A DNA stretch of 64,000 nucleotides from an uncultured Mycoplasmatota bacterium (GCA_946402735.1 CAMIXH010000002.1:310080-374079), one strand, 5' to 3'. Counted from the stretch's first letter, positions 46,831 through 55,005 are shown. Program-made: numbers and translations. Notes: a model not told the origin generated them from the letters alone.

Positions 46831-47286
46831 TTATCTACCAACTTGTAACAAATTCTTAGCTTGTTCAATATTCATTGTTTTAGCATTTACTGAATAAAAA
46901 TCATTCTCATCTATTGTATTAGGTTCAATACCATTTGGATTAACAATAAATATTGCATTTGTTCCATCATATGTTAGTATTCCGATTACTTCTCCATCAG
47001 TATTAACATAAACAGCATATTTATATTCTTTTCTACCTTGTAACTCTAAAGTGTTTTCTGGATTGGTTTCAATATTATTATATAGTTTCTTTTCATAACT
47101 CATAATTGATTCTCTTAAATATGTATTTGTAGCAGATCTACAAACTTCTCTTGTTTCAGATATAAAGTTTTGTTTCTTAGTATTTTTAAAAGATTCAATA
47201 ATATTAGGCGCAATAGTAATAACCAATACTGCCATAACAGCAATAACTGCAAGTAACTCAACTAAAGTAAAACCTTTTTTATTCAT
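46831..47286 (-). CDS. Type IV pilin / ComGC-like pseudopilin (prepilin N-terminal methylation motif)
   Basis: MNKKG|FTLVELLAVIAVMAVLV has the canonical G(-1), F(+1) and E(+5) followed by a hydrophobic helix. Confidence 0.8.
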   Translation of the reverse strand: MNKKGFTLVELLAVIAVMAVLVITIAPNIIESFKNTKKQNFISETREVCRSATNTYLRESIMSYEKKLYNNIETNPENTLELQGRKEYKYAVYVNTDGEVIGILTYDGTNAIFIVNPNGIEPNTIDENDFYSVNAKTMNIEQAKNLLQVGR

Positions 47287-47441: not shown

Positions 47442-47768
47442 ATGAAAACTATTAGAACAAATGGATTAAAATTAGAAATAGCAGATTTAGATTATAATTT
47501 TATAAAAGAAAAAATGGAATCAAACAAAAGGAAAGGTAAAACAGATCGACTAGAAGCTTATTCAAAATTACTTAATAATATAGATAAAAACTCTACTGCT
47601 AAAGAAATTGAAAATGAAGTAAATGCAATTATTGATATTGATAGAAAAAGAATAAAAGATTTAAAAAATGAAATAAAAAGATATGAAAAAGAAATATCAA
47701 TATTAACATATTATTCTGAAAGAGAAAATGAAGCAGATGTTATGACAACATTGATTGCAAATTTATAA
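47442..47768 (+). CDS. Small coiled-coil hypothetical protein
   Basis: A 108-aa Lys/Glu-rich ORF with a weak SD and a terminator directly downstream. Confidence 0.35.
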   Translation: MKTIRTNGLKLEIADLDYNFIKEKMESNKRKGKTDRLEAYSKLLNNIDKNSTAKEIENEVNAIIDIDRKRIKDLKNEIKRYEKEISILTYYSERENEADVMTTLIANL

Positions 47769-47770
47769 TA

Positions 47771-47800
47771 AAAAAACTAACAATAAATGTTAGTTTTTTA
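47771..47800. terminator. Bidirectional terminator
   Basis: AAAAAACTAACA-ataaa-TGTTAGTTTTTT. Confidence 0.7.
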
Positions 47801-47813
47801 AATCTCAAAATAT

Positions 47814-47887
47814 TGGAGGAACCGGCCGGATTTGAACCGGCGATGACGGTGTTGCAGACCGGGGCCTTACCACTTGGCTACGGTTCC
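47814..47887 (-). tRNA. tRNA-Cys (anticodon GCA)
   Basis: A manual fold fits. The acceptor is GGAACCG/CGGTTCC, the anticodon loop is CTGCAAC, the T-arm is GCCGG-TTCAAAT-CCGGC, the discriminator is U, and CCA is encoded. Confidence 0.9.
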
Positions 47888-47918
47888 ATGTACAAATAAT
47901 TATAGCAAATTATATGTA

Positions 47919-49514
47919 CTATTTCAAGTTAAAAGTGTATTTAACCCCTCTAATTAAAAGAATTAATTCAATTTTATTAGCTTTTAATACTTCTCTTGTT
48001 AATTCCATATAAGAATAATCATCTTTATTGTAATTAACATTTATTTTTTCTAGTTTAACCGTCTTGTAATTTCCTTGATATCTATATCTAATAATTCCAT
48101 ATTGTTCAAATAAATCAGCTGGATATTTTATAATATTTTTCATATAAATTGAATCATCAACTTTAATATTTGCTTTTATTTTTAGAATAACTACTTCACC
48201 TTTATTAGTTCCCTCTGGAATAATAGAATAAATTGCTTTTCTCTTTTTACCATTTAATTCATATGTATATTCTTCTTTAAATGAATCTCCAAATTCAAAT
48301 GAACTAATATGAACAGTAGTTTCTTTTAATATTGATTCTTTTAATACTACTTCATTAGGAATAGTATAATTACCTTCATCTAAATTATTATTTAAACTAT
48401 TAGGAATAATTAATACATCTTTATATTGAGTTGCATTACTTGTATTAATTAGGTTATTAATCTTAAATAAATATTGTTTTTCTAGATCCTGACTTTTTAT
48501 CTCAAATACAACTGTTTTTTCGGCATCCTCGCCTGCTTTTAATTCAAATGGAGCAAATATATCGCCAATATCAGTAAACTTGTTAGAATAGTTAAAAGAT
48601 GGCAATAATAACTCTTCTCCAACTTTTAATCTAAATGTATCTCTATTTAATATTTTACTCTCAGGAGTTATATTACTCATAAATACATCTACTAAAATAT
48701 AATACTTACCATCAGAAATAATTATATTATTTTTATCTGCTTGTGTTATATATGATGTATTTACTTTAAATTGAATTGAAGATGCTGTTACTATTTGATT
48801 TTCTGCATAACTTTCTTTATAAACATTTAATTTATTAAATAAATAAAATGATATACCAAATACTAAAATAGATGCTGTTCCAATTACAAATATTTTATTT
48901 TCTAATACAAAATATTTAGATAATCTAAGTAGCTTTCTAAAGAATCTTGCTATCTTATAAGTATCTGTTCCTAAAGTAACTTCTACTTCTTCATTATCTG
49001 AAGTATCTATTTCTAATTCTTCTAAATCTTTTTTAAAATCAAATTGTTTTAAATTAAATCCAAGCGTTCTACCAAGTACAATAAACATTAATACAAATTG
49101 AGGAAGTATTATAATGATACTTATATCTCTCATTGCTCTTATTGATTCTACACTTATTGATGCTTCTTCTAAATTTGAAAATACTGTTCTAATATATATA
49201 AAGAAGAAAATTAATATTAAATAATACATAAATATAAACAAATATGTTTTATTACTCTTCTCTTTAATAGACAAAATATAATAAATTACAAATGTAACAA
49301 GTATAGCAATAACTGTAACTATAAATAGTAGTGCAGGTACATAAGTACTAGCTAGGTTACTTGTATTAAAATATAAACCAGTTTTAGCATAATTACTAAA
49401 GAAAGAATATATACTAAAAGAGTCTGCTAATACATAAATAAGCAAACCTAAAAGAAAGGCATGAATAAGCCTAAAATGTTTAATTAAAAATGCATAAGGC
49501 TTCTTAATTACCAA
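47919..49514 (-). CDS. Polytopic membrane protein with an extracellular DUF4352-like beta-sandwich region
   Basis: It has about 5 TM helices followed by large extracytoplasmic domains. It probably starts at TTG 49514, 9 nt after AGGAG. The track start at 49523 is a TTG abutting the SD. Confidence 0.45.
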   Translation of the reverse strand: MVIKKPYAFLIKHFRLIHAFLLGLLIYVLADSFSIYSFFSNYAKTGLYFNTSNLASTYVPALLFIVTVIAILVTFVIYYILSIKEKSNKTYLFIFMYYLILIFFFIYIRTVFSNLEEASISVESIRAMRDISIIIILPQFVLMFIVLGRTLGFNLKQFDFKKDLEELEIDTSDNEEVEVTLGTDTYKIARFFRKLLRLSKYFVLENKIFVIGTASILVFGISFYLFNKLNVYKESYAENQIVTASSIQFKVNTSYITQADKNNIIISDGKYYILVDVFMSNITPESKILNRDTFRLKVGEELLLPSFNYSNKFTDIGDIFAPFELKAGEDAEKTVVFEIKSQDLEKQYLFKINNLINTSNATQYKDVLIIPNSLNNNLDEGNYTIPNEVVLKESILKETTVHISSFEFGDSFKEEYTYELNGKKRKAIYSIIPEGTNKGEVVILKIKANIKVDDSIYMKNIIKYPADLFEQYGIIRYRYQGNYKTVKLEKINVNYNKDDYSYMELTREVLKANKIELILLIRGVKYTFNLK

Positions 49515-49598
49515 TCTAACCAACTCCTACTATAAGAATTATAACATTTTATAATAAAAAAGACTATATTTTTTAGTCTCTTTTAAATTAGCATATTA

Positions 49599-50696
49599 TT
49601 ATTTATTGTATACAAATATAGTATTATTACTATTAAATGTTAATTCATAATTATAGAATATTATTTTGCTTCCAGTATATGGATTATACTTATAAACATT
49701 ATCTTTATATTGGTAATAAATATCATCATTATTTTCTTTAATTATATTATTTGAATTATTATTGATCTTTATTAATAAATCTTTATTTTCATTATAACTT
49801 TTATAAATACCATCACTACTATAAGTATAATTTGAATTATTATTTTCTATTTTAATTTTATCTACTTTATATAATGATTTACTACAAGTTACAAATTCAC
49901 CATTCTCATATTTAACATAACCAAGTTCATTATTACCAATTATTTCAACTTTATCTTTTTTAGTATCTATTTCATATAAAATAGAAAACTTATTATCAAA
50001 TAAATATAATTTATTTTTTATATTACCAACTATATAAGAATCAAAATCAATATTATGTTTTAAATTTATTACTTTCTTCTCAAATGTTTCAAGATTTAAT
50101 GATATTAATTTAGTAAACTCATGTTCTTCATCATTATTAGCCATATAAATAGTATTATCAATTATATAAGCTAAACTATTGTCATATTTATCTTTATCAA
50201 ATAAATTAATATTTTTATATTCTTTACCATTCATAACAATATACCCTTTATAATTCCATAAAGCAATATATTCTTTATCATTTAAATTATTATAAAGTAT
50301 AAAATCTTTATTAGGTTTTTCTATTTCAATACTTTCTTCTTTATATTCATTTAATAATTCTGAATCTATTAAATTATAATCAGTATAAACACCATTTAAA
50401 TAACAAAGAGGATATGTTTTATATTCTTCAATAGTTGGATAAATACATCTTAATTTTTCATCCTCTATTAAGTCTATTTTACTAATCATAGTTTTCCTAA
50501 ATGATCTACTATCAAGAATATCAAAATTATATGTATAATCATTATCTTTTATTTCATAATAAAATCTTTTATTCTTATAAATAGTTTTAATTTTATAATT
50601 ATCAACTTTATAATTAATTTCATAATTAGAAAATCTATATTTAAGAACAATTAATAAAGAAAAAACTAATATTATAATTATTAACCATTTTTTCAT
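49599..50696 (-). CDS. Signal-anchored extracytoplasmic hypothetical protein
   Basis: The start is moved to MKKWLII, 5 nt after AGGTGA. The protein is Asn/Tyr/Lys-rich and beta-rich in composition. Confidence 0.45.
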   Translation of the reverse strand: MKKWLIIIILVFSLLIVLKYRFSNYEINYKVDNYKIKTIYKNKRFYYEIKDNDYTYNFDILDSRSFRKTMISKIDLIEDEKLRCIYPTIEEYKTYPLCYLNGVYTDYNLIDSELLNEYKEESIEIEKPNKDFILYNNLNDKEYIALWNYKGYIVMNGKEYKNINLFDKDKYDNSLAYIIDNTIYMANNDEEHEFTKLISLNLETFEKKVINLKHNIDFDSYIVGNIKNKLYLFDNKFSILYEIDTKKDKVEIIGNNELGYVKYENGEFVTCSKSLYKVDKIKIENNNSNYTYSSDGIYKSYNENKDLLIKINNNSNNIIKENNDDIYYQYKDNVYKYNPYTGSKIIFYNYELTFNSNNTIFVYNK

Positions 50697-50747
50697 AGTA
50701 TTCACCTATATAAATTATACAATATAACAAAATAAAAAACTAGTTTC

Positions 50748-51191
50748 CTAGTTTTTTATAATACCATTTTCAGTTAAGAAGTTCACTGTTAAATCTCGAT
50801 TTGCAAAACCAACAGTACTATTAACAAAGTTTCCATCTCTCATAATATATGTATATGGAACATTTCCGTCATAATCGCTTAATTCAAATGAATTCATTAA
50901 TTTATCATATGCATCTTGGTCTTTTTCTCTAATAGTATCTACTTCAAAGAAGTACAAATTTATGTTATATTTATTTGCTAATTTTGATATAACTGGATAG
51001 TATTCCTGACAATGTGAACAATAAGATGCTCCGTATATAGTTAATACTTCTTTATTATTAATAATGTCATTATACCAATCTTCTACAGTTCTTTCTTTAT
51101 AGTCTGGCATTTGAGAATTAAGTGAAATAACAATTACTCCTAATATAACAATTATTATTCCAATTATAATACCAATATATTTCTTTTTCAT
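50748..51191 (-). CDS. Membrane-anchored extracytoplasmic thioredoxin-like protein
   Basis: It has an N-terminal TM anchor and the active site YGASYCSHCQEYYP (CxxC). Confidence 0.7.
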   Translation of the reverse strand: MKKKYIGIIIGIIIVILGVIVISLNSQMPDYKERTVEDWYNDIINNKEVLTIYGASYCSHCQEYYPVISKLANKYNINLYFFEVDTIREKDQDAYDKLMNSFELSDYDGNVPYTYIMRDGNFVNSTVGFANRDLTVNFLTENGIIKN

Positions 51192-51249
51192 AAAAATACC
51201 TCTATATTGATTTTATAACATTAAGGTTTTTTTTACAATGAAAAAAGGT

Positions 51250-52920
51250 TTATTTACAAACCTTTTCTCCGTTAACTGTTCTTGTTTTTCCTGTATAAAT
51301 CCATCCGTTTAATGTTTTAGAATTACTCCATTTATATTGATATCCAGTAGTTTCAACTCTTGTAACTTTAGCTTTCTTCTTAGAAGTTGCATATAAGTTA
51401 CATTTGTCTCCTTCTAACTTCCATCCCTTAGAACATTCTCTAACTGTATAAGTTTCAGTTACAACTTTATAACATTTTGATCCACTTAACTTATAAGATG
51501 AATCTTTACATTTATAATATGTAGAACCAGCTATTAACTTGTAGCATTTTAATGTAGATCCGCTACCTTCTTTAACATCTGTTCCACTTGGACAACTATA
51601 AGTTGTTGTAGTCTTAGTACACTTATGATCACTTGTTAATGTATATCCACTATATTTATTACAATTGTATGAAGTAGTAGTTTTAACACAATTAGATCCA
51701 CTTAATGTATATCCACTATATTTATTACAATTATATGTAGTAGTTGATTTAACACATTTGTTTCCACTTAATGTATATCCACTATATTTATTACAATTAT
51801 AAGTTGTAGTAGTTTTCTTACATTGTTGACCACTTAATGTATATCCAGGATACTTATCACAGTTATAAACTGTTTTATAACAAGTATCAGTATATACAAC
51901 GCTTACATCTTTACAAGATTGAACTTGAACTGTTTCATAACATGTATTACATGTTGTTGTTGGTTTACCATTAATAATTGTAGTCTTACAATCACAAGAA
52001 TATGGTCTCTTTTCAGTCTTAGTAGTACATTGTTGTTCTACTCTTGTTTTTTCACAAGAATATGGTTTTTGTACTGCTGTAGCTGATTTTGTATCAGTAG
52101 TAGTTACTTTAGTTGCATCTTTTGTATCTGTTGTAGTTACAGGTGTTGCAGCTTTAGTATCAGTAGTAGTTACTTTAGTTGCATCTTTTGTATCAGTCTT
52201 AGTAGTAACAACTGTTTTTAATTGTTGTAATTTAGCTTGTTCTGTAATTAATTGAGCATCTTGTGTTAGAGTTTTTTCTCTAGTCTTAGTTTTGATAGCA
52301 CTTTCACTATCTTTTAAAGTCATCTTATAACAATATTTACCTTTTAAAGTATAATTCTTGTCACAAGAATATTTTGTTTTAGTTCCACTAACTAATTTTT
52401 TGAATTGATATTGAGTAACTTTAGTATAAGAACATTTTTCTTCTTTATTACCACAGTTACAATTACATTCAACTCCGTTATTAGGACAATATACATGACA
52501 TCCTAATGTCTTTGTTGTGAAACTTGATTCTTTTCCACATACTAAGTATGTTTTTAATTCATATCCAAGATCACCTTCAAGTTTAGTAATACTTACATAT
52601 GAATTAGTTTTATCACAAGCTTTTCCATCTTTATCAACAAATGGTAATATTAAATTCATATTTTCCATTTCTTCTAAAGTAAGTTTTACACTTTCACCTG
52701 GAACGCTTGGTAATTTATCTGTAGTGAAATAATTTTCACCAGCTTCTTGCATATATTTAATATTTTCTCTGTAGACATTACTATAGAATGGAGTCATATT
52801 AACATTAGGTATTTTCTTTTGGAATAACCAAATTAATATGAATATAAATATAGCAGCAAATATAATTTTTACTAATAGATCTAATACACTAAATCCACTT
52901 TTTCTTTCATTACTATACAT
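51250..52920 (-). CDS. Cys-rich repeat protein with a prepilin-like N-terminus
   Basis: The N-terminus MYSNERKSG|FSVLDLLVKIIFAAIFIFILIWLF has G-F and Asp at +5. I counted about 33 Cys by hand. Repeats are 4 x 22 aa (TTTYNCNKYSGYTLSGxxCxK) and 4 x 11 aa (TTTDTKxATxV). Confidence 0.6.
   Translation of the reverse strand: MYSNERKSGFSVLDLLVKIIFAAIFIFILIWLFQKKIPNVNMTPFYSNVYRENIKYMQEAGENYFTTDKLPSVPGESVKLTLEEMENMNLILPFVDKDGKACDKTNSYVSITKLEGDLGYELKTYLVCGKESSFTTKTLGCHVYCPNNGVECNCNCGNKEEKCSYTKVTQYQFKKLVSGTKTKYSCDKNYTLKGKYCYKMTLKDSESAIKTKTREKTLTQDAQLITEQAKLQQLKTVVTTKTDTKDATKVTTTDTKAATPVTTTDTKDATKVTTTDTKSATAVQKPYSCEKTRVEQQCTTKTEKRPYSCDCKTTIINGKPTTTCNTCYETVQVQSCKDVSVVYTDTCYKTVYNCDKYPGYTLSGQQCKKTTTTYNCNKYSGYTLSGNKCVKSTTTYNCNKYSGYTLSGSNCVKTTTSYNCNKYSGYTLTSDHKCTKTTTTYSCPSGTDVKEGSGSTLKCYKLIAGSTYYKCKDSSYKLSGSKCYKVVTETYTVRECSKGWKLEGDKCNLYATSKKKAKVTRVETTGYQYKWSNSKTLNGWIYTGKTRTVNGEKVCK
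51600..51870 (-). repeat. Four tandem 66-nt (22-aa) coding repeats
   Basis: TTAATGTATATCC recurs at 51636, 51702, 51768 and 51834, a period of 66 nt. Confidence 0.85.
52078..52210 (-). repeat. Four tandem 33-nt (11-aa) coding repeats (TTTDTKDATKV)
   Basis: The unit GTATCAGTAGTAGTTACTTTAGTTGCATCTTTT repeats with variants. Confidence 0.8.
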
Positions 52921-52938
52921 ATCAAAACCCCCCTCTAA

Positions 52939-54381
52939 TTAATTATTATTTAAATTTAATGTTTGTCTATGATCATATTTCCAAGATAATTGTTGATTTA
53001 AAGCATCATAGTATTCAGCAAGCCATGGATTTGGTTCAACATCCATACCACCTAATTTAGCACCAACATTATTCCAAGCACCTGTTTCTAATGCAACAAC
53101 TAAATCATTTACAGAAATTAATCCTTTTTCACCAGTATTATAATCTAAGCAAGCTTCAATACATACTGGAGTTTGTTCTGATAAATGCCATTCTCTAGCA
53201 GTTGTATTATAAGGTTCAATTGTTGAAATAAATGTTAAATACATTAAGTCAGTTCTAAATAGATGTGGGTTTGTATCACCATACATTCCTTGTAGATACC
53301 ATTCATTGTAGAATTTAAATCCTAAGCAAGCAATGGCATCTTGAACTTGTTCATCATCATGTTCATTTAAAGCATATATTAACTTATCATAAATTACACT
53401 ATAAGATCTAACGAAATCAGATTCTTCAGTTCCATCAGCAAATAATAAGTAAGCTGGGAAGTAAGTATAATGATTTGTATCATTTGAGTTAACATTAATA
53501 ACTACTTCACATAAAACATCAGTATATTCATTTAATGTCATTCCATCAAAGAATTCATATCCTTGTTCGTTAATTGGTAAAGTACCATTCATAATTCTGA
53601 TAGTATTTTCTAAATTTTCAACAGTAATTAATCTCTTTTGTTGAGCAGTTAATGTTGGATTATTAGCAAAATAATTATCAAAAATATATTGAGCTCTTGC
53701 GTGTACTTGTTCAGGATCATTGATATCAAAGAATGTACCATATTCTCCTGCTACTAATTGTACAACTTCTTCCTCTTGAGTTTCTGTTGGAGTTTCAGTT
53801 TCTGTTGGAGTTTCAGTTTCTGTTGGTTTTTCTGTTTCTGTTGGAGTTTCAGTTTCTGTTGGTTTTTCTGTTTCTGTTGGTTTTTCTGTTTCTGTTGGTT
53901 GTTCATCTTCAGCTCTAGTAATAACTCTTACTGGAGTTTCAGTTTCTTCAACTGTTTCAGTTTCAGGTTTTTCACTTCTTACTTTCTTAGCTTCTAATCC
54001 AGTATGGATAGCAATTCCAGTAAGTAATGTAGCACCAACTAATCCTAAAGCAACAGCTCCAGCTCCAACTCCTTTCTCGTCATCTACAGAAGTTTCTTCT
54101 GCATGTGTTTCAACCCTTTCAGGTTCTTCAAGACCAGGAACAACTAATTCATATTTGTCATTTAAATAACTATGAAGTTCTACAGCTTGTGTATGATATT
54201 CTTCAACATTATCTACATTAACACCATTATGAATTCTTTTAACTTTCCAAATGTCACTATTAACTTCATTTAGAATTCTGTTAGTTGCGCCATTTTCTTT
54301 TAGTGTTGTACGATAAGCTACTAATGACTTATACATACTTTCACACATACTTTGTGTTTCTTTCACTAATTCATTTTTCAT
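52939..54381 (-). CDS. Type II membrane protein with a PTETE(K/T) repeat linker and a C-terminal extracytoplasmic domain
   Basis: The TM helix is GAGAVALGLVGATLLTGIAIHTGL, followed by 7 PTETE repeats. SD AAAGGGGG is present. Confidence 0.5.
   Translation of the reverse strand: MKNELVKETQSMCESMYKSLVAYRTTLKENGATNRILNEVNSDIWKVKRIHNGVNVDNVEEYHTQAVELHSYLNDKYELVVPGLEEPERVETHAEETSVDDEKGVGAGAVALGLVGATLLTGIAIHTGLEAKKVRSEKPETETVEETETPVRVITRAEDEQPTETEKPTETEKPTETETPTETEKPTETETPTETETPTETQEEEVVQLVAGEYGTFFDINDPEQVHARAQYIFDNYFANNPTLTAQQKRLITVENLENTIRIMNGTLPINEQGYEFFDGMTLNEYTDVLCEVVINVNSNDTNHYTYFPAYLLFADGTEESDFVRSYSVIYDKLIYALNEHDDEQVQDAIACLGFKFYNEWYLQGMYGDTNPHLFRTDLMYLTFISTIEPYNTTAREWHLSEQTPVCIEACLDYNTGEKGLISVNDLVVALETGAWNNVGAKLGGMDVEPNPWLAEYYDALNQQLSWKYDHRQTLNLNNN
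53781..53898 (-). repeat. About 6.5 tandem 18-nt repeats encoding PTETE(K/T)
   Basis: TTTCTGTTGG recurs every 18 nt from 53781 to 53889. Confidence 0.9.
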
Positions 54382-54411
54382 AAATTTTACCCCCTTTGAA
54401 AAAGTGATTGT

Positions 54412-54440
54412 ATTATACCATATTTTTTGAAAAAAGTCAA
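54412..54440 (-). promoter_or_regulatory. Near-consensus sigma-A promoter of the 54381..47919 cluster
   Basis: The - strand reads TTGACT, a 17-nt spacer, then TG-g-TATAAT, about 30 nt upstream of the ATG at 54381. Confidence 0.7.
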
Positions 54441-54495
54441 TCTTTTTGTATATTCGGACTAACTAAACGTGTATTATTATAGCAAAAAAAAAGTA

Positions 54496-54924
54496 TTAGT
54501 CAACCTCTTTTCTAACACTTTTTTTAATTAATTTTCTAATATTGAACTCAAATATTGTTATAAATAGAAGACCAGCATATATAATTGACTTAAAAATGTT
54601 CTTATATATGAATACTTTTTCTATATATTTTAATGAGTCATCTGTATAGTTAATTGTATTTATAACTATGTTTTGTAATATAAAACTATTAAATATTCCA
54701 AATAGTATGATCAGTATTAATTTACTAACTCTAGCTGAGCTGAATCTCCTTTTATAATTATATGCACAAGGCACAAGTAGAAACAATATTAATAAGTTAT
54801 TTAGTAAATAAACCATGCCAAAAAAAGTATTATCCACTTTAAAATAGATTATAAATTCTATAAAAGAGAATAATATAAATAAAAATGTAAGAATAAATAA
54901 AAGCAATTTCTTATATTTAAACAT
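54496..54924 (-). CDS. Small polytopic membrane protein
   Basis: The start is moved to MFKYKK, after GAGGTG. It has 4 hydrophobic helices. Confidence 0.45.
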   Translation of the reverse strand: MFKYKKLLLFILTFLFILFSFIEFIIYFKVDNTFFGMVYLLNNLLILFLLVPCAYNYKRRFSSARVSKLILIILFGIFNSFILQNIVINTINYTDDSLKYIEKVFIYKNIFKSIIYAGLLFITIFEFNIRKLIKKSVRKEVD

Positions 54925-55005
54925 ACTACACCTCACAATAATTATATCATATTTTCCTTGTTTTAATAAGCTATTATGTGGTATTATTTATATAGAGGGT
55001 ATAGC

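Follow-up and report, generated by a model that had tools for sequence, protein, structure and literature searches.

A five-gene cluster at positions 47,919 to 54,440 of a 64,000-nucleotide stretch of DNA from an uncultured Mycoplasmatota bacterium (GCA_946402735.1 CAMIXH010000002.1:310080-374079; the whole stretch is called the window below) raises the question of what a cysteine-rich protein with a pilin-like N-terminus does when it is encoded beside a membrane-anchored thioredoxin. A first-pass annotation had suggested that the cysteine-rich protein carries a class III (prepilin) signal, that the thioredoxin is its dedicated folding catalyst, and that the cluster as a whole could be an undescribed surface fibre or adhesin module. 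The window is part of a 1.28-Mb assembly (27% GC, ~85% complete), and the genes, all on the minus strand, are named g1 to g5 in transcription order, with up_146 for the open reading frame (ORF) before g1 (Table 1). Our analysis points to a different arrangement, which we consider probable by a modest measure, namely that two modules are juxtaposed at this locus: an uncleaved, pilin-derived, disulfide-stapled surface stalk (g2) together with g1, and a family-wide envelope module made up of the thioredoxin (g3), g4, a LysM protein in relatives, and g5.

Profile comparisons indicate that the membrane-proximal 140 residues of g2 are descended from a type IV pilin module. A family profile of residues 1-165 was built from 22 orthologues belonging to many genera, and its hhalign alignment with a canonical N_methyl pilin (96.9%, E 1.6e-10) ran in register over 120 columns (residues 7-131), pairing KSGFSVLDLL with KKGFTIIELL and also aligning both head cysteines. 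A hidden Markov model (HMM) restricted to the head (residues 44-142), without the transmembrane (TM) segment, detected pilins with canonical signals at E 5e-11, 2e-6 and 1.6e-5 among 2,882 ORFs. In the AlphaFold2 (AF2) model of the g2 base (predicted local distance difference test, pLDDT, 82; predicted template-modelling score, pTM, 0.63), a TM helix (residues 12-34) was followed by a second helix (43-64) and a small beta-sheet, which comprised three main strands and a short one. Of the prepilin-like character ascribed to g2 in the first-pass annotation, the homology to a pilin-type module stood, over both the helix and the head, but the class III signal itself proved to be degenerate.

A class III signal is defined as a leader ending in Gly or Ala and followed by 21 hydrophobic residues (PMC8179133). 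We found in this g2 Gly9, Phe10, Asp at +5 (Asp14) and a conserved Lys at +9 (Lys18). The hydrophobic tract of ~24 residues is longer than that of the genome's pilins, and is followed by QKKIP and a helix break at residues 35-42 in the AF2 model; a continuous alpha-1 helix of ~21 hydrophobic residues with Glu at +5 was not present in g2. Among 120 homologues from the genus, 87 had Gly at position -1, 31 had Arg and 1 had Val; the 14 orthologues from other genera followed the pattern MY[ST]EE..[KR].F[SP]I[KR]D[FL][IL]LK, with Gly absent in 10 of the 14 and Lys or Arg at +4. M1 was invariant and Y2 nearly so. In this species the resemblance of g2 to a class III signal is therefore superficial. 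The N-terminus is most likely an uncleaved signal anchor, since Gly(-1) was often lost while Met1-Tyr2 was kept; a leader destined for removal would not be expected to show such conservation. A working prepilin signal was therefore not supported, as Arg or Val replaced Gly(-1) in 32 of 120 homologues and Gly was missing in most other genera, although PilD might still cleave g2 in this genome.

None of PilB, PilC, PilD and sortase is encoded inside the window, as had been stated, and the genome carries PilB, PilC and PilD elsewhere. A genome search for a prepilin peptidase, proposed as a check in the first-pass annotation, detected PilD (Peptidase_A24, C1:290801, E 1.9e-13), and also PilC (T2SSF, C1:289464-290444) and PilB (T2SSE, C1:505693). 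Canonical pilins number at least 12 in the genome, with lengths of 965-1,145 aa in some cases, and two sortase-like genes lie away from the cluster. No LPXTG-like motif with a hydrophobic tail was found in g1-g5; g2 ends in ...VNGEKVCK.

Beyond the pilin-type head, g2 is rich in Thr and Cys. The number of cysteines, first counted by hand as about 33, is exactly 33, and the Cys content is 5.9% as compared with 1.2% across the ORFs of the genome. Tandem Repeats Finder (TRF) detected a 33-nt repeat (TKDATKVTTTD; 3.4 copies) and a 66-nt repeat (YNCNKYSGYTLSGxxCVKTTT; 3.5 copies), and residues 163-555 in the AF2 model of full-length g2 (pLDDT 80, pTM 0.30) were all-beta, with very long strands at pLDDT 80-90. 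Thirty-two of the cysteines fall into 16 sequence-local pairs, leaving over Cys555, the penultimate residue, and the Cys count was odd in 94% of g2 homologues. The C-terminal motif KWS..L.GW.YTGKTR was conserved family-wide. The penultimate Cys was present in 34 of 35 genus loci and occurred only in this genus. g2 was found in 36/36 genomes of the genus and 20/20 genomes of other genera, and its homologues make up more than 648 clusters at 90% identity, all of them unnamed. Sequence searches of the PDB with g2 and with the family profiles of g1, g2, g4 and g5 returned nothing useful for g2 (a Sushi-like motif at E 0.9 and rhodopsin TM noise), and the only Foldseek matches of the full g2 model, to long beta-hairpins in pore-forming toxins and phage tails, were set aside as meaningless, with TM-scores below 0.12. 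We propose that g2 would be a type II membrane protein, N-terminus inside and C-terminus outside, whose class III signal has decayed into an anchor. The predicted stalk would be composed of long, all-beta, Thr-rich strands with ~16 locally disulfide-stapled hairpins, and would end in the KWS..GW..TGKTR motif. Its most likely role would be that of an abundant surface fibril, or a spacer or adhesin, that is not polymerised by PilB/PilC.

The partner of g2 in this putative module, g1, begins with a coiled-coil-like region on the cytoplasmic side, followed by a TM segment (residues 107-125), the PTETE linker and a conserved outer domain of 270 aa with an invariant CxxxC (C407, C411). Identity within the genus is 18-55%, indicating fast evolution, and the linker is variable or absent among orthologues. 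Outside this genus, the g1-g2 pairing was seen in G377 (L104) alone. A match of the g1 profile to the YaxA coiled coil in the PDB search (2e-5) was rejected, as it falls on the low-complexity N-terminus.

Expression of g1-g2 would be driven by a conserved strong promoter. Both tandem promoter-like sites before g1 were kept at 11-12 of 12 positions, plus TG, in all 12 orthologous loci. As a class, such sites showed no excess in this 27% GC DNA (73 found vs 78 expected in shuffles); the promoter of g1 is nevertheless regarded as real and strong, since conservation in 12/12 loci is far beyond chance. The near-consensus promoter of the first-pass annotation, matching 11 of 12 positions plus TG, was thus borne out. 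We then considered the transcript downstream of it. A promoter/terminator scan demands three GC pairs and so overlooked AU-rich hairpins, which were revealed by folding. No hairpin was found by folding after g1 in 12/12 loci. At the end of g2, relatives have a terminator-like hairpin (dG -9.6 to -13.2 kcal/mol) stronger than the one in this genome. The hairpin after g3 (AAAAACTAG-GAAA-CTAGTTTTTT) was kept in 13/13 genus loci, the hairpin at 49555..49585 lies in relatives after the LysM gene, which is missing here, and the extended -10 element before g5 is also conserved in relatives. Since conserved terminator-like hairpins follow g2, g3 and g4, a single transcript of five genes is doubtful, and the single transcription unit assumed earlier was not supported. 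It is likely, as judged from these signals, that g1-g2 are strongly expressed from the consensus promoter and that g3, g4 and g5 form attenuated or separately promoted units.

Gene order argues for the same division. Within the genus, the order up_146-g1-g2-g3-g4-LysM-g5-tRNA-Cys recurred in dozens of species, with syntenic housekeeping flanks. We extended the survey to 20 loci of 17 other genera, where g4 adjoined g5 in 12, LysM separated the two in 6, and 6 had a gene for a membrane thioredoxin just upstream; the arrangement thioredoxin-(bPH)-g4-LysM-g5 was seen in other genera. g2 was away from g4-g5 in all 20 other-genus genomes, usually after pfkB-smr, and it likewise follows pfkB-smr in a sister-family genome (L026). 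The nearest other genus (L084) has up_146-g3-g4-LysM-g5, with g1-g2 on another contig. Given these separate arrangements outside the genus, the cluster can be understood as g1-g2 inserted between up_146 and g3-g4-LysM-g5. The five-gene co-conservation on which the first-pass annotation relied thus held across the genus but not beyond it, where the thioredoxin, g4, LysM and g5 stay together and g2 lies elsewhere in 20 of 20 genomes.

Other proteins with pilin-type features were detected at g4/g5 loci by the head-only HMM. In L094 (6271-10107), the gene between g4 and g5 codes for a canonical N_methyl pilin of 1,278 aa and 38 Cys that contains five Flg_new repeats as well as Cys repeats of the ephrin-receptor-like type. 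In L098 (13805-16473), L101 (13999-16541) and L103 (13706-16312), which represent three genera, a protein of ~600 aa with a plain TM anchor and a pilin-type head is encoded directly after g5; these proteins carry a Bact_surface_Ig-like domain, and a sortase gene and a secreted protein are encoded next to them.

g3 was confirmed to be a membrane-anchored thioredoxin with a CSHC motif. It matched Pfam Thioredoxin at E 2.7e-9 (37.4 bits; threshold 23.5), with CSHC at residues 58-61 (codons 51009-51020) and a VPY cis-Pro loop at 111. Three Lys residues precede the single TM segment (6-24) and a net-acidic flank follows it, so that the catalytic domain is predicted to lie outside according to the positive-inside rule. 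The motif reads CSHC, CPHC or CQHC within the genus. DsbA, MdbA and PDI typically have a His in their CxHC motif (PMC9974433), and from the motif of g3 we infer that g3 is a DsbA/MdbA-like oxidase or isomerase. Orthologues without CxxC (CVYS, DDVC) were observed next to g4/g5 in two genera (L092:9210-9704 and L103:10964-11581), in which the fold may have a redox-independent role.

Whether g3 is dedicated to g2, as first suggested, was judged from its distribution and from other cysteine-rich proteins of the genome. Four rabbit-gut species have lost g3, no orthologue being found in their assemblies (best E 5e-4, as compared with 1e-25 or better elsewhere), and their g2, with 25-29 Cys, directly precedes g4 or unrelated genes. 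The genome encodes exported proteins with 63, 48, 47, 43, 43 and 40 Cys, and the organism appears, from its predicted proteins, to have a disulfide-rich surface proteome. Two of the large Cys-rich proteins adjoin a sortase-like gene (C3:108251-108736). A second exported thioredoxin of 395 aa (C2:38698-39885, minus strand) has a signal peptide, a glutaredoxin/thioredoxin-like domain (CPHC) and a fused polytopic CcdA/DsbD_TM-like domain with an FNPC motif (sub-threshold Pfam match, E 0.003), and it may be a general extracytoplasmic redox module. The precedent cited for a dedicated catalyst is correct, in that BdbDC oxidise ComGC in B. subtilis (PMC8262900). For g2 the idea was not supported: g3 travels with g4-g5, the rabbit-gut clade lost g3 and keeps a Cys-rich g2, and the genome encodes numerous further Cys-rich proteins for export as well as the second exported thioredoxin. 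g3 is probably a general oxidase/isomerase for exported Cys proteins, not a private chaperone of g2, and its substrates would include the Cys pair of g4, g2, g1 and many other Cys-rich surface proteins.

The second module would thus comprise g3, g4, a LysM gene lost here, and g5, conserved across the bacterial family; g4 and g5 look like a conserved envelope complex. In g4, the pair C87-C101 was conserved family-wide, and Cys274 was found in 22/22 genus loci and 0/11 in other genera. g5 has a conserved acidic cytoplasmic loop and two outer beta-sandwich domains, the first of which scored 20.3 bits against Pfam DUF4352 (PF11611), below the gathering threshold of 25.9; the family profile matched YjhA (PDB 3cfu) at E 3.1e-5. 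An Ig-like relationship of g5 is likely on the strength of the YjhA match, but membership of DUF4352 is unproven at that sub-threshold score. Of 49 other genomes in the family, 43 carried g5, as against two marginal matches among ~350 genomes of other families, and g5 homologues form 1,347 representative clusters (50% identity), all unnamed. All ~45 related loci have a LysM gene (110 aa) between g4 and g5, and in relatives no gene of the cluster is better conserved (~75% identity). Here it is cleanly missing, with no copy anywhere in the assembly, and g4 abuts the hairpin that follows LysM in relatives. In L062 and L064 an insert of ~3.2 kb interrupts LysM near residue 75.

Downstream of g5, the tRNA-Cys gene has its own promoter-like site (TTGAAA-17-TGcTATAAT, 47899-47927) and a following hairpin (47771-47799). 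The genus retains its linkage to g5, as do about half of the sampled genera outside it. We rejected the idea that tRNA-Cys is tied specifically to g2, the Cys-rich gene, and the placement is considered an old synteny with g5, since the linkage holds in genera where g2 lies elsewhere.

Three other explanations of the locus were weighed. That g2 is a genuine prepilin, cleaved by PilD after Gly9 and carried as a modular (tip) pilin on a type IV filament, with g3 as its dedicated disulfide catalyst, would accord with the resemblance of G9/F10/D14 to the G/F..E motif, with the homology of the g2 module to canonical pilins, and with a genome coding for PilD, PilC, PilB and giant modular pilins of 1,145 and 965 aa. 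Modular pilins are also widespread (PMC8179133), and BdbDC offer a precedent for the oxidation of a pilin-like protein (PMC8262900). We nevertheless regard this explanation as quite unlikely, given the replacement of Gly(-1) in 32/120 homologues and its absence in most other genera, the conserved M1/Y2, the longer hydrophobic tract with Lys at +9 and a helix break afterwards, the clade that lacks g3 but keeps a Cys-rich g2, and the association of g3 with g4-g5 where g2 is elsewhere. A sporulation or cell-wall morphogenesis role of g3-g4-(LysM)-g5, with a StoA-like thioredoxin and an accidental adjacency to g2, also seems unlikely. StoA of B. subtilis is a membrane thioredoxin required in cortex synthesis, and Spo0A is encoded in this genome (G000:C4:6129-6440) and in 18 of 19 related genomes; yet Spo0A is equally present in six genomes of the family without g5, g4 and g5 matched no sporulation family of Pfam or NCBIfam, and LysM has been lost from this genome. 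That the LysM protein of relatives lacks a signal peptide, like mother-cell coat and cortex proteins, and that the L090 module is bordered by genes for an M23 peptidase and an extracytoplasmic function (ECF) sigma factor, would fit such a role. The occurrence of Spo0A throughout a family with genomes of 0.7-1.6 Mb suggests endospore formers with very small genomes.

The recurrence of pilin-head proteins next to g4/g5 is a hint at a possible functional link between the modules. The modules might cooperate, with g4-g5, the thioredoxin and LysM as an apparatus that holds or matures proteins anchored by pilin heads, and with a disulfide between Cys555 of g2 and Cys274 of g4 made by g3. Such proteins occur near g4/g5 in at least four other genera in varied arrangements (L094, L098, L101, L103), the Cys count of g2 is odd in 94% of homologues, and the penultimate Cys of g2 and Cys274 of g4 are both confined to the genus in which the genes are adjacent. 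The co-occurrence of the two cysteines, however, amounts to a single evolutionary event, L098, L101 and L103 may share one ancestral arrangement, and chance adjacency is expected with ~15 pilin-type genes per 1.2-Mb genome. Most genera also keep g2 far from g4-g5, and one species (L044) has g1-g2 but no g3-g5 downstream. We consider cooperation of this kind improbable, and its specific form, in which g4-g5, the thioredoxin and LysM would dock or mature pilin-rooted surface proteins independently of PilD/PilB, with a Cys555-Cys274 lock in this genus, seems a long shot. Several observations also weigh against the two-module reading that we prefer. A Foldseek search of the g2 head against the PDB gave a best E of 0.25, with pilins only at E 0.8-1.1; Gly(-1), Phe(+1) and an acidic +5 are all present in this g2, and PilD exists; the hairpins after the genes are AU-rich; and pilin-head proteins recur near g4/g5 in other genera (L094, L098, L101, L103). 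Finally, DsbB/BdbC and VKOR (PF02600, PF07884) had no match in the ~85%-complete assembly, and with no such re-oxidising partner found, the redox direction of g3 is unproven.

Table 1. Coordinates of the genes, protein regions and signals at the locus. Positions are those of the window, except where a contig is given.
Feature	Position	Strand	Description or basis
g1	52939..54381	-	480 aa, bitopic protein
g2	51250..52920	-	556 aa, predicted membrane-anchored stalk protein, 33 Cys
g3	50748..51191	-	147 aa, N-terminally anchored thioredoxin-fold protein
g4	49599..50705	-	368 aa from GTG; signal-anchored, beta-rich, without family match
g5	47919..49523	-	534 aa from first TTG; ~five TM segments
up_146	54496..54936	-	146 aa, small polytopic membrane protein, without family match
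g2 residues 1-36, degenerate class III-like N-terminus (MYSNERKSG/FSVLD) and TM helix	52813..52920	-	AF2 helix 12-34/36
g2 residues 44-142, pilin-type head: helix 43-64, small beta-sheet, C102-C128 pair	52495..52791	-	HMM, hhalign, AF2
g2 residues 143-556, Thr-rich and Cys-rich beta-hairpin repeats	51253..52494	-	AF2, TRF
18-nt tandem repeat in g1, 7.1 copies, coding PTETE(K/T)	53779..53905	-	TRF
Extended -10 sigma-A-type promoter, TTGACT-17-TGgTATAAT	54412..54440	-	11/12 positions and TG; before g1
Second tandem promoter-like site, TTGACT-16-TATAAT with TG	54476..54503	-	Overlaps end of 146-aa ORF
Weak hairpin and U6 over g2 stop codon	51241..51262	-	Folding
Terminator-like hairpin AAAAAACTAG-GAAA-CTAGTTTTTT and U-run after g3	50732..50759	-	Folding
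Terminator-like hairpin between g4 and g5	49555..49585	-	dG -10.6 kcal/mol, z -4.1
TGtTATAAT extended -10 element	49538..49546	-	Just 5' of g5 ribosome-binding site; conserved in relatives
tRNA-Cys(GCA)	47814..47887	-	Sole one detected in assembly (32 tRNAs); 31 nt after g5
Canonical type IV pilin gene	46831..47286	-	KKG/FTLVELL; N_methyl, ComGE/ComGC-like N-terminus
Cys-rich exported proteins	C1:402871-405957, C2:24000-26762, C3:110515-118890, C1:479140-481908, C3:1-2920		One is a 973-aa canonical pilin

The ORF calls on the minus strand agreed with the first-pass description of five ORFs, with gaps of 18, 58, 42 and 75 nt between successive genes. Likelier starts are ATG at 50696 for g4, with AGGTGA in front (365 aa), and TTG at 49514 for g5, which is ATG in relatives (531 aa). 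Hydropathy analysis gave one hydrophobic segment each in g1 (107-125), g2 (15-33), g3 (6-24) and g4 (3-21), and about five in g5. up_146 is a sixth co-oriented membrane ORF, and is always upstream of g1 within the genus. The stand-alone pilin gene is a neighbour and not a member of the cluster, being shared at this position by the closest relative alone (L018/L037). Between it and the tRNA-Cys gene lies a plus-strand ORF (47442-47768) for a Lys/Glu-rich coiled coil of 108 aa, which had no homologue in any related locus; its match to Bacillus_HBL (E 0.002) was treated as coiled-coil noise, probably compositional. The related metagenome-assembled genomes came from human, rumen, rabbit and chicken guts and are labelled Bacilli, Tenericutes or Erysipelotrichaceae, and 'Clostridium sp. 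CAG:524' is one member of the lineage. In L034 (G007:C1:1023500-1043400), numerous in-frame stops (TGA, TAG and TAA) interrupt g2-g5 and the flanks; this genome, which belongs to the genus, is a single contig, 45% complete, and either a low-quality long-read assembly or real decay is possible.

The families of g2 and g5 are large and unnamed, and consist of core genes of an uncultured gut lineage of humans, ruminants, rabbits and chickens. On the two-module reading, g2 would be a clear case of a pilin module that came to serve as the fixed membrane root of a disulfide-stapled stalk. For the annotation of pilins this would mean that a GF..E-like N-terminus is insufficient as evidence, and it is also relevant to surface construction in these bacteria. 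As the survey of gene order indicates, an oxidoreductase gene beside a Cys-rich gene can be a recent accident. The many disulfide-rich exported proteins of a genome in which DsbB/VKOR were not found in the assembly raise the question of how disulfides form in an anaerobe.

Among known systems, g2 is most readily compared with the modular type IV pilins, such as PilB of Streptococcus sanguinis (PMC8179133), with which it shares a small pilin module, a Cys pair and a large C-terminal part grafted onto the module. Canonical modular pilins with N_methyl signals are also encoded in this genome and in relatives. Unlike these, g2 has an unconserved signal, Asp at +5, Lys at +9, a conserved N-terminal tail and a helix break after a longer TM segment, and it lies outside any pil/com operon, so that it is probably a static anchored protein and not a filament subunit.

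g3 resembles DsbA, MdbA and BdbD (PMC9974433, PMC8262900) in its anchored, outward-facing thioredoxin fold, its CxHC motif and cis-Pro loop, and its location near disulfide-rich exported proteins. It differs from this group in having a catalytic domain of only ~110 aa, with little room for a DsbA-type helical insertion. Searches of the assembly for a DsbB/BdbC or VKOR partner were negative, the CxxC motif varies and has degenerated in two genera, and the conserved neighbours are g4/g5 instead of the Cys-rich protein. With StoA (SpoIVH) of Bacillus subtilis, g3 has in common an N-terminal anchor, a Spo0A-positive Firmicute as host and, in relatives, a LysM neighbour, but it shares only the thioredoxin fold and no specific sequence relationship. 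StoA probably works as a reductant supplied by CcdA. In g5, the first outer domain is similar to the Ig-like lipoprotein domains of DUF4352/YjhA through its YjhA profile match, whereas in g5 this domain is joined to a five-TM block and an acidic cytoplasmic loop without counterpart in known families. Overall, the locus is probably best seen as two unnamed envelope modules brought side by side in this genus only, a variant of the modular pilins on the one side and of the DsbA/MdbA-like oxidoreductases on the other.

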